A stretch of 19,347 nt of DNA, taken from an uncultured archaeon. GTDB taxonomy: Archaea > Iainarchaeota > Iainarchaeia > Iainarchaeales > 0-14-0-20-30-16. Made by a program: the position numbers and the translations under genes. The DNA lies in contig CAZMCX010000005.1 in the NCBI GenBank assembly GCA_964565125.1, positions 2,392 through 21,738 of the forward strand. Direction: 5' to 3'. Below are positions 5,880 to 12,855 of this stretch, one piece after another (position 1 is the first letter of the stretch; every line of letters begins with the position of its first letter). The notes beneath the pieces were generated by a model that was given only the letters and a program-made list of their open reading frames with translations, was not told where the DNA came from and did no database searches.

Positions 5880-5956
5880 TATACCACCTCTTATATATCA
5901 AATAGATATAATATTTTAAATGATTATATTCTTAATACTTTAAATTGTGATCTTTT

Positions 5957-9592: not shown

Positions 9593-10675
9593 TTAATACT
9601 TATTATAAATTCTGTTTAGGGCTATTTCATTTAACCTATTTAATCTATCAATTATCATTTTTGTAATTTTAACAGGTATTGCTGCTTCTGAAGCCAAATC
9701 TTCTGGCTTAGTAATCATGATCTCAAATAGGTTGTCTCTAGTTTCAACAACCTTTTCGATAATTGTGGAAGATAACTTTGGAATCTTTGACAACGCCCTG
9801 TATCCTCTTGGTGAAATTATCTCGTTCTTTTCTGTTTCATTATAACCCAACAAAGTCAAGAGTTCCTCTTTGGACGGCACTTCTACAAGATTTACTAAGC
9901 TTTGAGTCATCTCTCCAAAGGTAATATCTCTTTTTTCTTTATGACAGTAATCGTAGATGATAAGTTCAAGTTCTCTATCAAGACCATCTGTATATTCTGA
10001 AAGCATGTCCTTTCTATCTTTTCCGTCTTTACCAAGCTCAGTAATGGCTTTTTCCGCATTCCGTTTTTGAACCAAAGTTCCAATTATTTTTTGGATTATA
10101 TTTGTAACATCAGTAAGACTTACATTGTTTGTAAATTCATAATAAGTTAATTCATTTAGAGCGACTTCGATCTGGGTTCTTGTATTGTAAAGACTTCTTA
10201 AATCTTGGTCAACACTAGCTAAAACAAATTGTACTGGTTTTAGTAAAAATTCCTGATCTTTAAAAAATAAGGTAATGTTTTTTCTCCTTTTTGAAATAGC
10301 AACTACTGGTAAGTTTGTTTGTATTGCAGTCTGCTCTGCAGATCTATGCCTGATTCCAGTCTGTTTTGAGGAAATATCTTTGTCTGGCATTAAGTGGGCA
10401 TTTGCATAGATTATTTGTTTTAAATCATTGCTTATTATAATTGCTCCATCCATCTTTGAAAGCTCGAATAAATTATTTGAAGTTAATGGGACATCTAAAC
10501 GGAATCCGCCCCTAATTATACATTCTAATATGAGGTTTCTGCCCACAACAATTAATGCCCCGGCATCTCCCTTTAAAATTTCATCTAATCCTGCCCTCAA
10601 GGGGGTTCCAGGTGCTATAAGGGGGATAATTTCATCTACATTTTTGTATTCTTGCATTTTCTTTTCTTCTGTCAT
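9593..10675 (-). CDS. disA: DisA-type diadenylate cyclase (DNA integrity scanning protein homologue)
   Basis: Collinear with bacterial DisA. Matches include APGTPLRAGLDEILKGDAGALIVVG, DAC motifs KMDGAIIIS and TGIRHRSAEQTA, VVAISKRRKNITLF, and the C-terminal PRGYRALSKIPKL. ATG 10675 is preceded by AGGTGAT plus 4 nt, and the track GTG at 10684 lies inside that SD. The longest ORF would be 9593-10684. Confidence 0.85.
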   Translation of the reverse strand: MTEEKKMQEYKNVDEIIPLIAPGTPLRAGLDEILKGDAGALIVVGRNLILECIIRGGFRLDVPLTSNNLFELSKMDGAIIISNDLKQIIYANAHLMPDKDISSKQTGIRHRSAEQTAIQTNLPVVAISKRRKNITLFFKDQEFLLKPVQFVLASVDQDLRSLYNTRTQIEVALNELTYYEFTNNVSLTDVTNIIQKIIGTLVQKRNAEKAITELGKDGKDRKDMLSEYTDGLDRELELIIYDYCHKEKRDITFGEMTQSLVNLVEVPSKEELLTLLGYNETEKNEIISPRGYRALSKIPKLSSTIIEKVVETRDNLFEIMITKPEDLASEAAIPVKITKMIIDRLNRLNEIALNRIYNKY

Positions 10676-10686
10676 TGGTATCACCT

Positions 10687-11532
10687 TTATTTCAGGTTGT
10701 CTAATGGACTTTTTACTTTTTTGAGCTCGTCTGTTGTAACCTTTGTATAGATTTGAGTTGTAGACAAATTAGAATGCCCCAAAAGTTCCTGAATTTTTCT
10801 AATATTTTCCCCAGCATCTAGTAAATGTGTTGCAAAAGAATGCCTTAAAGTATGAGGCGTTACTTTTGTATTAATCTTTGCGTTGTCTGCATAATTTTTT
10901 ATCATCTTTTGGATTGTGTCAGAACTATAATTTGTGCCATTTTTTTTGCAGAAAACATATTCTGAGTTCACTTTCTTGAAAAATTTGTTTGCAAATGCCT
11001 GATATTCTACAAGCCATCTTTTTGATACTATTACAATTCGATCTTTATTGCCTTTGCCACCTGTAATTCTAATGATTGCTTCATTAAAATCTATTGCGTT
11101 TTTCTTTAGGTTACATAGTTCTGAAACTCTTAGGCCTGAGCTATAAAGAAGTTCAACTATGAGCTTATCTTTTTTGTCAGAAATAACCCTAAAAAGCTTT
11201 TTTACTTCTTCTTTTGTTAATACTGTTGGCAGGTATTGTTCTTTTTTCGGGGTTTTGATGTCTGCCATAAGGTTTTGTTTTTTGTAGCCACTAAAGTAAT
11301 ACTTTAAACTAGCATGGATTGCATTAAGAGAGGTATTTCTTATTCCTGCATCTTTTTTGTGTGATAAATAAGAAGTAATATCCTCGGTTGTCACTAAATT
11401 AAGGTCTTTGTTTATGAATTTCAAGAAGTCGTTAAGGTATAGAAGGTACTGACTCTGCGTTTTATTGCTGTATCCGGAAATGTTTAGATGATTTTTGTAA
11501 TGTTCTATTTCTAAAGAATTATAAGAATCCAT
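10687..11532 (-). CDS. xerA: Tyrosine recombinase, XerA/XerC/XerD family
   Basis: 281 aa with an N-terminal SAM-like core-binding domain. Catalytic set: GLR(V)SE, GKGNKDR, HTLRHSFATH, LLGHSNLSTTQIYT (R-K-H-R-H-Y). The TAA stop is 2 nt from the longest disA ORF. Confidence 0.85.
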   Translation of the reverse strand: MDSYNSLEIEHYKNHLNISGYSNKTQSQYLLYLNDFLKFINKDLNLVTTEDITSYLSHKKDAGIRNTSLNAIHASLKYYFSGYKKQNLMADIKTPKKEQYLPTVLTKEEVKKLFRVISDKKDKLIVELLYSSGLRVSELCNLKKNAIDFNEAIIRITGGKGNKDRIVIVSKRWLVEYQAFANKFFKKVNSEYVFCKKNGTNYSSDTIQKMIKNYADNAKINTKVTPHTLRHSFATHLLDAGENIRKIQELLGHSNLSTTQIYTKVTTDELKKVKSPLDNLK

Positions 11533-11569
11533 GTATTATAGAGATATTTATAGTATATTAAGTTTTCCA

Positions 11570-11581
11570 AAATCGGCTTAA
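11570..11581. other. Half-site AAATCGGCTTAA: 11/12 copy of the left arm of the dif-like site at 12265-12276
   Basis: Direct-orientation copy 38-49 nt upstream of the xerA ATG, between two TATA-like AT blocks. No matching second arm follows it. Confidence 0.4.
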
Positions 11582-11612
11582 ACCCATAAATATATACATA
11601 ACCACTGAAATA

Positions 11613-12167
11613 TTACTTTTGAGATAACCAGTTATATATTCCTGTAACTCTTAGACGAATTTCTTCATATCCATACCTTTTTCTTTCTTCTTCGAATTTT
11701 ACATATGTTGCAAGCGCCTTTTTTAGTAAAACAACTTCTGATAATCCTTTTGATTTTACATTTAATCTGCTAAATATCCCAGTAAAAACACGATCAGTAA
11801 AAAGATCACGTAACTGGTTTGCATGGTAACGTTCTGCTTTGGGTATAGACCCCAAAGCTTTATCTTGGGCTTCTTTAGCATCCCTAAAATCGCGTTGAAA
11901 CTCAGCATCACGTCGTTCAAGAGCTGAGGCAGAATTAAACCATAAAAAGTGTATTAATTTTGATACATATTCCTTTTTCCTATTGAAAAGGTCCCTTTTT
12001 GTTAGTCTTCCTGCAAGCGCTCTTTGTCTTTCTAACCTTTCAGCAAGTTTTCTTGCTTTTTCTATTCTTTTTTGTTCGGCCTTATTTTTTGCAAATTCAA
12101 ATAAGGGTGTTCCTCATTCTCCTTTTTGAGCAACTCTTCTTTCAGTAGGTCTCTTAGGTACAGTCAT
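11613..12167 (-). pseudogene. Hypothetical basic/helical protein gene of atypical composition, with one in-frame TGA at codon 18 (pseudogene or recoded)
   Basis: I translated the whole - frame by hand. ATG 12167 has GTGAT 3 nt upstream, and the frame is open to TAA 11613 except for TGA at 12114-12116 (AQKGE-TGA-GTPLFEF). No ATG/GTG/TTG occurs in frame until the TTG at 11855, which the ORF track used. 7 of 23 Arg codons are CGN; CpG and G+C are enriched relative to neighbours. Confidence 0.55.
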
Positions 12168-12265
12168 GTAATCACTTATAAAAAATCGTCACCAATATTA
12201 ATATTCATTACTAAAGTCTACATAACAAATACCTTTTGCGGTAAAATGCGGGCAGAAAATACGTA

Positions 12266-12293
12266 AATCGGCATAATGTACCTTATGCCGATA
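12266..12293. other. dif-like Xer recombination site candidate (11-6-11 layout, perfect 10-bp arms)
   Basis: AATCGGCATAA-TGTACC-TTATGCCGATA. Arms ATCGGCATAA and TTATGCCGAT are exact reverse complements separated by 6 bp. The inner 17 nt GCATAATGTACCTTATG match E. coli dif GCATAATGTATATTATG at 15/17 positions. It lies in a 255-bp non-coding gap, 735 bp from xerA. Confidence 0.55.
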
Positions 12294-12422: not shown

Positions 12423-12779
12423 TCATTTAATGACTCTAATTACCATATCCTTTTTGTACTCTTTCTGCACGAACTTATAATCCCCATAGTGTTCGTAAAT
12501 TATTAGTCTTGCGGGGTAGTCTTTTGCAGTAGTAGTTGGCTTAGTAAAAATTTGAAAATAAAATGTTTTTGATTCACCCGGGGCCATTTCCCCTATAGGC
12601 CGTTCTAGTTTGTTGTTCATCCCCGTGCTTTCAACAGCCAAATCCTTAGCAACCATAAAGGCCAAAGTCAAAAGCTTTTTCTCTTCATCTTTATTTTCTA
12701 AAATAAGTTTCAGTTCTTGTGGTTTTTTTGTTCCTAATTTTATATTAAATGGTATCAAAACACTTTTTATTGCTAACAT
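12423..12779 (-). CDS. Hypothetical small cytoplasmic protein (beta-rich; no family recognised)
   Basis: ORF with native AT-rich composition. ATG 12779 is preceded by GGGTGAT plus 4 nt, and the track GTG 12788 lies inside that SD. No signal peptide or TM helix. The PGESKTFYFQI-type strand pattern is reminiscent of small beta-sandwich domains. Confidence 0.65.
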   Translation of the reverse strand: MLAIKSVLIPFNIKLGTKKPQELKLILENKDEEKKLLTLAFMVAKDLAVESTGMNNKLERPIGEMAPGESKTFYFQIFTKPTTTAKDYPARLIIYEHYGDYKFVQKEYKKDMVIRVIK

Positions 12780-12855
12780 TAATATCACCCTTCACTTTGT
12801 AACTCTATAATATACACAGTAATGTAATATATATTCTTATCATATAAAATAGTTT

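Follow-up and report, generated by a model that had tools for sequence, protein, structure and literature searches.

The locus described here raises the question of whether a small gene lying between the recombinase gene xerA and a dif-like recombination site in an archaeal chromosome is the remnant of a mobile element that entered at dif, or a native resident of the region in which it is found. The DNA in question is a stretch of 19,347 nucleotides (called "the window" below) of contig CAZMCX010000005.1 in assembly GCA_964565125.1, positions 2,392 to 21,738 of the forward strand, from an uncultured archaeon of the Iainarchaeota. A preliminary description of it had viewed the 555-nucleotide open reading frame (ORF) next to xerA, here called ORF X, as a single-gene cassette of foreign composition that is interrupted by a TGA codon and bracketed by copies of a dif arm, and so perhaps as a decayed IMEX (integrative mobile element exploiting Xer). 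Our analysis leads to a different view: X is probably a native, fast-evolving orphan gene of an xerA/dif module that has been inactivated by a nonsense mutation in this organism, and the extra dif arm is probably an inherited half-site, likely to bind XerA. The parts of the window that carry this argument are the following.

10687-11532, minus strand: xerA, intact gene for an archaeal Xer-type tyrosine recombinase (NCBIfam NF040815 recomb_XerA_Arch, 5e-82)
11569-11581, minus strand: isolated dif-arm half-site, TTAAGCCGATTTT on the xerA strand, matching the xerA-proximal dif arm at 11 of 12 positions
11613-12167, minus strand: ORF X, apparent pseudogene of a lineage-restricted orphan gene; 184 amino acids if read through, basic and predicted to be all-alpha
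12114-12116, minus strand: nonsense codon TGA in ORF X, aligned to Asn in the homologous protein P0001 and to Asp in the homologous protein P0003
12266-12293, no strand assigned: dif-like site, presumed XerA recombination site, AATCGGCATAA-TGTACC-TTATGCCGATA, with 11-bp inverted arms and a 6-bp spacer

Composition and codon usage of ORF X

The frame itself had been read correctly: translation gives an ATG at 12167, a TAA at 11613 and a single in-frame TGA at codon 18. The earlier codon counts also hold, with 23 Arg codons in ORF X, 7 of them CGN, and 1 CGN among the 8 Arg codons of xerA, as does the CpG enrichment of the 255-bp spacer upstream of ORF X (observed/expected 1.18 with 8 CpGs, against 0.45 for the window); about half of these eight CpGs, read by eye, lie within or beside the dif site. 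The claim of a foreign composition did not survive. The G+C content of ORF X is 0.348, against 0.266-0.382 in the 17 other genes of the window (xerA, previously put at about 27%, has 31.4%) and 0.328 for the window as a whole; a 300-nt G+C profile runs at 0.31-0.37 over ORF X, as it does in many other parts of the window, and its G+C content at third codon positions (GC3), 0.184, is the lowest in the window. When synonymous codon choice is scored against the pooled usage of the other genes, ORF X is the best fit of the 18, and the CGN share of its Arg codons (7/23, against 21/136 elsewhere) is not significantly high (Fisher p=0.13). The G+C, GC3, CpG, Arg-codon and codon-usage likelihood tests lead us to reject a foreign origin of ORF X, whose composition and codon usage are native. 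Its unusual trait is its amino acid content, 44 Lys plus Arg in 184 residues, with a net charge of +19.

The X family and its predicted fold

A word-indexed search of 5.8 billion clusters with the single X protein gave no match. An exhaustive phmmer search of 1.84 billion representatives gave three: P0001 (193 amino acids, 57% identical to ORF X, 1.5e-47), P0003 (174 amino acids, 30% identical, 7.5e-5) and P0002, an 80-amino acid fragment that is a truncated call of X in a sister strain. P0004 (248 amino acids) was picked up by a profile search, and a metagenome scan for the dif core described below exposed a fifth lineage, L083, with an X ORF of 172 amino acids. X is known in this way from five Iainarchaeota lineages and is intact in four of them, at 172-248 amino acids; the chance that frames of 172-248 codons stay open in such AT-rich DNA is 1e-6 to 1e-9, so X must have been maintained in the lineages in which it is intact. 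Back-translated X patterns had no match in a scan of metagenomes, a family hidden Markov model run against all ORFs of at least 80 xerA loci found no remote homologue beyond the five lineages, and X is without a homologue in at least 60 other Iainarchaeota and Aenigmatarchaeota xerA loci. X is a real but tiny orphan gene family of a narrow clade.

Searches of Pfam, NCBIfam, PHROGs, PADLOC and the PDB sequences gave no match to the X sequence. Structure prediction, already thought worthwhile for the read-through product in the preliminary description, gave with AlphaFold2 (from a four-sequence alignment) a confident all-alpha model of eight helices (pLDDT 85, pTM 0.69), and a Foldseek comparison of this model with PDB and BFVD found no meaningful match.

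Gene order and divergence in related genomes

The gene content of the window is archaeal according to Pfam and NCBIfam (Nop5, fibrillarin, GatD, archaeal D-aminoacyl-tRNA deacylase, DisA and the XerA recombinase), and the closest XerA genes in a search of 185,579 species genomes all come from metagenome-assembled genomes of Iainarchaeota/Diapherotrites (DPANN). The xerA product passes the NF040815 equivalog model with 275.4 bits (cutoff 220) and has Pfam Phage_integrase and SAM-like domains. The gene order on the xerA strand is o121, dif, X, xerA, disA, with 0.73 kb between dif and xerA, and with its XerA-type recombinase the region is best classed as a chromosomal xerA/dif module of a DPANN archaeon. 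The far border of dif is formed by one further gene.

12423-12788, minus strand: o121, conserved orphan gene that borders dif on the side far from xerA

Relatives hold X in the same place. The order in L005 (GCA_028710695.1), GatD-MT-DtdA-o118-dif-X-XerA-DisA, matches the window exactly; L008, L080 and L082 differ from this only by a further frame, ORF Y, between dif and X; L083 has DtdA-o118-dif-X-XerA; and the approximately 1-kb contigs L002 and L003 show X between the C-terminus of Y and xerA. The full o121-dif-(Y)-X-xerA slot is thus seen in the three lineages whose flanks reach far enough (L005, L008 and L083), the others, on short contigs, show as much of the gene order as their contigs span, and all five carry X directly upstream of xerA. 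XerA, where it is available at full length in these lineages, is 75-88% identical. The preliminary description looked to an empty site in relatives, with dif directly adjacent to xerA, as a sign of insertion; there is no o121-dif-xerA arrangement without X among 69 XerA loci or 8 dif-core loci, and the nearest outgroups that link an o121-like gene to xerA (L016 and L018) have a peptidase gene between the two, not dif abutting xerA.

The divergence of X is discordant with that of its flanks. Between the window and L005 the flanking proteins GatD, MT, DtdA, o121, XerA and DisA are 88, 84, 80, 97, 88 and 94% identical, respectively, and the X proteins (11613-12167 in the window, 6001-6525 in L005) are 29-30% identical; the X proteins of the window and L002 are 53% identical, while the N-terminal part of the L002 XerA is 72% identical. 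The divergence at four-fold degenerate sites between the window and L005 is 0.485, so 29% identity of X is near what unconstrained drift would give, yet the frames are open. This discordance could reflect an accelerated rate, diversifying selection or gene replacement. The idea that two allelic types of X have been exchanged between lineages is unsupported, as pairwise scores do not group L005 with L008.

Two neighbours of X deserve separate mention. The o121 protein is the best-conserved one of the neighbourhood (97% identical to that of L005, 92% to L083 and 73% to L008) and has no match in Pfam, NCBIfam or PHROG; L016, L018 and L024 have weak homologues (26-30%) at 2.4-3.7 kb upstream of their xerA genes, and the L016 copy is beside a dif-like site. 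ORF Y (2661-3128 in L008 and 1-168 in L002) is a second orphan, an Arg-rich protein of 155 amino acids with the C-terminus ...RRVFNSY[KE]F. The L008 and L002 lineages have it between dif and X; the window, L005 and L083 lack it. It has no family match.

The premature stop codon

The preliminary description raised the possibility that the TGA arose by nonsense mutation, and this is confirmed, for a gene that is itself real, by alignments on both sides of the TGA and by three assemblies. The residues ahead of the TGA (MTVPKRPTERRVAQKGE) align with the N-termini of intact X proteins, and those after it likewise align with intact homologues, with a conserved PLF motif directly after the TGA. The same TGA is present in the window, in L004 (ENA ERZ27293411, from a different ENA sample and 3.6% diverged over ORF X) and in L078 (JGI Ga0210051, from a JGI sample). 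A sequencing or assembly error in an otherwise intact gene would be suggested only by the fact that the TGA is a single base-level feature; its presence in L004 and L078, which are independent assemblies from other samples, means that it is not an assembly error, and we give this explanation practically no weight. L004 in addition has a CAA to TAA change at codon 14 of X. The next in-frame ATG, GTG or TTG after the TGA is at 11855, 86 codons on, and a start there would leave only the C-terminal 80 residues. With a reproducible premature stop in a region homologous to intact proteins and no downstream start that could rescue it, X in this organism is to all appearances a pseudogene, and the simplest reading is that of a young one, a recently inactivated gene.

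A second alternative is that X still functions, either because the TGA is read through or recoded (as selenocysteine, Trp or Gly) or because translation restarts downstream in a non-canonical way. The 166 codons that follow the TGA are open in three strains and begin with the conserved PLF motif, and a comparison of the window with L004 gives a ratio of non-synonymous to synonymous substitution rates (dN/dS) below 1, from few counts. X differs at about 20 of its 555 nt, the flanking non-coding DNA and the start of xerA at 3 of about 200-250 nt. Within X, 7 codons differ synonymously and 10 non-synonymously (one by a nonsense change, three by changes of 2 nt), over some 120 synonymous and 432 non-synonymous sites; the resulting dN/dS of about 0.4-0.5 is indistinguishable from 1, the neutral value, at such small counts. 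An open downstream frame, moreover, is expected at about 3.6% divergence even without selection. TGA is the ordinary stop codon of five other genes in the window, the in-frame TAA of L004 four codons earlier means that no single recoding rule rescues the frame there, the 86 codons past the TGA offer no ATG, GTG or TTG, and an Rfam scan of the window found no family at gathering score, including any selenocysteine insertion sequence (SECIS) model in the library. We consider a functional X in this organism quite improbable.

The dif-like site

The site at 12266-12293 is a 28-bp palindrome of the 11-6-11 type with one arm mismatch. The spacer between o121 and X has the same core, CGGCATAA-KGTACM-TTATGCCG, in four lineages (the window, L005, L008 and L083), which also share some of the sequence around it. 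The 11-6-11 arrangement, the non-coding location and the inner ATAA/TTAT are the format of archaeal and bacterial dif sites (PMC2958812, PMC5357621). A 28-bp non-coding site conserved among relatives is also what an archaeal xerA/dif module is expected to contain, and by its sequence this site appears to be such a dif.

The dif spacer read on the xerA strand is GGTACA in the window (12277-12282) and L005 (about 5893-5898), and TGTACC in L083 (about 1466-1471) and L008 (2476-2481); the outer spacer bases are swapped while the flanks are collinear, and therefore the polarity of dif relative to xerA flips between lineages. An identical 22-bp dif core is also present on four metagenome contigs of high G+C content (L076, L077, L079 and L081; G+C 0.62-0.68). 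In the two of these that were examined, L077 and L081, it lies beside three tandem tyrosine-recombinase ORFs; all three in L077 have the Pfam Phage_integrase domain, and there are extra GTCGGCATAA sub-repeats around the L077 site. We take this arrangement to resemble the terminus of a "recombinase in trio" (RIT) element. A palindrome of another kind, TTACGGTAATG-N6-CATTAT(A/G)GTAA, is found in five other archaeal XerA loci, three of them titled Iainarchaeum. Counted from the point where the tblastn match to XerA starts, it lies 2.4-3.1 kb downstream (L075 about 2446, L072 about 2494, L021 about 3101, L030 about 3082 and L051 about 2955). It may be a further conserved site, for recombination or for regulation; the window has no second candidate dif of this other-Iainarchaeota type (TTACGGTAATG-N6-CATTATAGTAA).

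The half-site at the putative xerA promoter

The repeat of a dif arm on the other side of ORF X, noticed in the preliminary description, is real: the window has two matches and no more, AAATCGGCATAA (12265-12276) and AAATCGGCTTAA (11570-11581), and the latter is the sole other match to the dif arm there with at most one mismatch. A match at 11 of 12 positions would arise by chance with a probability of about 0.0012 in the 80-bp spacer between X and xerA, and of about 0.03 in 2 kb. A partner arm that would complete the half-site to a full site was looked for by hand and not found, either at a 6-bp spacing (4 of 11 matches) or at an 11-bp spacing. On its xerA side the half-site adjoins the following element.

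11554-11566, minus strand: putative xerA promoter, a BRE-like AAAAC (BRE, transcription factor B recognition element) followed by a TATA box, TTAATATA, 21 nt before the ATG

The block AAAC-TTAATATA, 21-22 nt before the xerA ATG, is the best-conserved part of the X-xerA spacer in an alignment of the five lineages, and the half-site ends 2 bp upstream of it. From the usual architecture of archaeal promoters, we infer that this block is a BRE/TATA element that drives a leaderless xerA mRNA. The half-site is identical in L004 and near-identical in L005 (TTAGGCCGATTTTT); it is degenerate in L083 (TTAAACCGGATTT, with substitutions and an indel) and absent in L008 and L002, and the outgroups L016 and L018 showed none at their xerA promoters. 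It is non-random, and within one sub-clade it has been inherited as part of the promoter region. The fallback idea of the preliminary description, that it is an operator through which XerA acts on its own promoter, is plausible in view of the conserved BRE/TATA block that it abuts. Because it is absent in L008 and L002 and altered in L083, it is not an essential operator.

The same region holds a second repeated motif, GTTATGTA[TG]A on the minus strand, which occurs at 12217-12226, upstream of the X promoter region, and at 11593-11602, just after the X stop codon and upstream of the xerA promoter. It is kept at both places in L005 and L083 and partly in L008 and L002.

Was X inserted at dif?

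The case for an IMEX starts from two sites, the full one at 12266-12293 and the single arm at 11569-11581. An IMEX junction would leave such a geometry, in which X is flanked by a full site and by a repeat, in the same orientation, of the xerA-proximal arm. For a recent, now decaying foreign cassette, the main proposal of the preliminary description, the geometry is joined only by the slight and non-significant excess of CGN codons and CpG. The rest speaks against it. G+C content and codon usage are native; orthologues occupy the same slot in lineages whose XerA proteins are only 75-88% identical, none of which offers an empty site; two of them, L008 and L002, carry an X orthologue without the half-site, a pattern that the preliminary description had itself named as refuting its proposal; and neither an X homologue, nor the fold, nor the dif core was found in viral collections (PHROG, viral contigs and BFVD; plasmid collections were not searched). 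Rfam and tRNA searches of the window matched no RNA gene or tRNA, and either of these as integration target was rejected as well. A recent IMEX is rejected, and is indeed very improbable, because the expectations regarding composition, an empty site, mobile cargo and homologues in free elements all fail, and because the half-site is absent in two lineages that carry the orthologue.

An older event deserves more consideration. X, with or without Y, might have entered the ancestor of the clade by Xer recombination at dif and been inherited vertically since, in which case the lone arm would be a decayed junction. The geometry fits this, and so do the restriction of X to a narrow clade (none in at least 60 other loci, nor elsewhere in the 1.84 billion representatives), the variable content of the dif-xerA interval (X, or Y plus X) and the discordance of X with its flanks. 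On the other side, X is present in all five lineages and no empty site was found; its codon usage is the most native in the window; protein, fold and dif core have no viral matches; genes for replication, mobilisation or structural proteins are missing from the supposed cargo; the second site consists of one arm without a partner and is not present where Y and X occur together; and in the outgroups L016 and L018 the space between the o121-like gene and xerA holds a peptidase gene. Taken together these points make an ancient insertion unlikely, if a good deal less so than a recent one.

We therefore return to the view that X is a native orphan gene of the xerA/dif module, which we consider probable. 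Three observations weigh against it: the discordance between X and its flanks could mean that the gene was replaced and did not simply descend vertically; the half-site, which L008 and L002 lack and which is changed by substitution and an indel in L083, is for that reason not an essential operator; and the dN/dS of X of about 0.4-0.5, below 1 on few counts, would allow some residual constraint. As we picture it, a very fast-evolving gene for a basic, all-alpha protein would have descended vertically within the clade and been inactivated here by the nonsense change at codon 18, with a second nonsense change at codon 14 in the sister strain and no alternative start in evidence. XerA and dif are intact and presumably resolve chromosome dimers without X; the action of XerA on dif to resolve dimers is the established function of the family (PMC2958812). 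X would then be an accessory to this system or an orphan with no part in it, and this species tolerates its loss. Most plausibly, a single XerA monomer would bind the half-site beside the BRE/TATA block and so tune xerA transcription; alternatively, the half-site may be a functionless relic.

Comparison with other recombination modules

Some archaea have a linked xerA/dif module (PMC5357621), and in the Thermococcales dif is not next to xerA (PMC2958812). The linked archaeal modules, and XerS/difSL of streptococci and lactococci, resemble the present one in that a single Xer gene is linked to a non-coding 11-6-11 site that is conserved among relatives (PMC5357621, PMC2958812). The present module differs from them in having one or two orphan genes (X and Y) in between, in a dif that is 0.73 kb away, and in the extra half-site in the xerA promoter of one sub-clade. 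The arrangement of the module is thus already known, and it is found here in DPANN Iainarchaeota.

CTXphi, TLCphi and the gonococcal genetic island, all IMEXs, share with this locus a full dif and a partial arm in the same orientation beside the host Xer system (PMC5357621). The locus differs from them in showing no presence/absence polymorphism, in its native composition, in the lack of mobile-element genes and viral homologues, and in a second site that consists of one arm only and that two lineages lack even though they have X. We know of no archaeal IMEX. The term "IMEX" does not occur in a 2021 review of archaeal tyrosine recombinases (PMC8371274), the one source checked for it among the literature on IMEXs, Xer and archaea. 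XafT, the Xer activation factor of TLCphi, activates XerD and stabilises synapses between imperfect sites (PMC9226527). Like X, it is a small protein encoded beside an Xer site, and X might be analogous to it if X acted on XerA, to judge from gene position; X differs in being dispensable in this species, and it has no match in Pfam, NCBIfam, PDB or BFVD, searches that did not include a direct comparison of X with XafT.

The resolvases of Tn3 and gamma-delta autoregulate through res sites in their own promoters. The half-site would resemble these as a putative recombinase-binding sequence at the promoter of the recombinase gene, and it differs from them in being a single putative half-site, in belonging to a tyrosine recombinase and in being conserved in only part of the clade.

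On the other side of xerA, disA follows directly on the same strand with a gap of 2 nt (9593-11532, minus strand, for the pair), and the xerA-disA pair is also kept in L005 (6600-8547) and L008 (3971-5916). DisA is a DNA-integrity-scanning diadenylate cyclase, and the pair is possibly an operon that ties dimer resolution to DNA-integrity signalling.

Significance of X and the half-site

What these findings do is mostly to clear up a seeming archaeal IMEX remnant, which now looks like a nonsense-mutated native orphan in a linked xerA/dif module. Of modest use to others will be a well-conserved candidate dif for the clade, CGGCATAA-KGTACM-TTATGCCG, together with X, a small orphan family found strictly in linkage with dif and xerA, and a dif half-site at the xerA promoter. 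A bolder thought, and a distinctly unlikely one in our estimate, is that X (and Y where it occurs) is a dedicated accessory of XerA and dif, a basic helical protein that would bind XerA, or DNA at or close to dif, and control the timing or direction of recombination, or else that X is the domesticated cargo of what would be the first IMEX in archaea, whose junction would have decayed to the half-site; if the latter were true, cassette replacement or an arms race at dif would explain why X evolves so fast and so discordantly. Since this species has lost X, the gene is unlikely to be essential. Archaea, to our knowledge, lack FtsK, and X as an accessory would, by analogy, parallel FtsK-gamma or XafT. 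X and the half-site may serve as cheap candidates for how archaeal XerA is controlled without FtsK.

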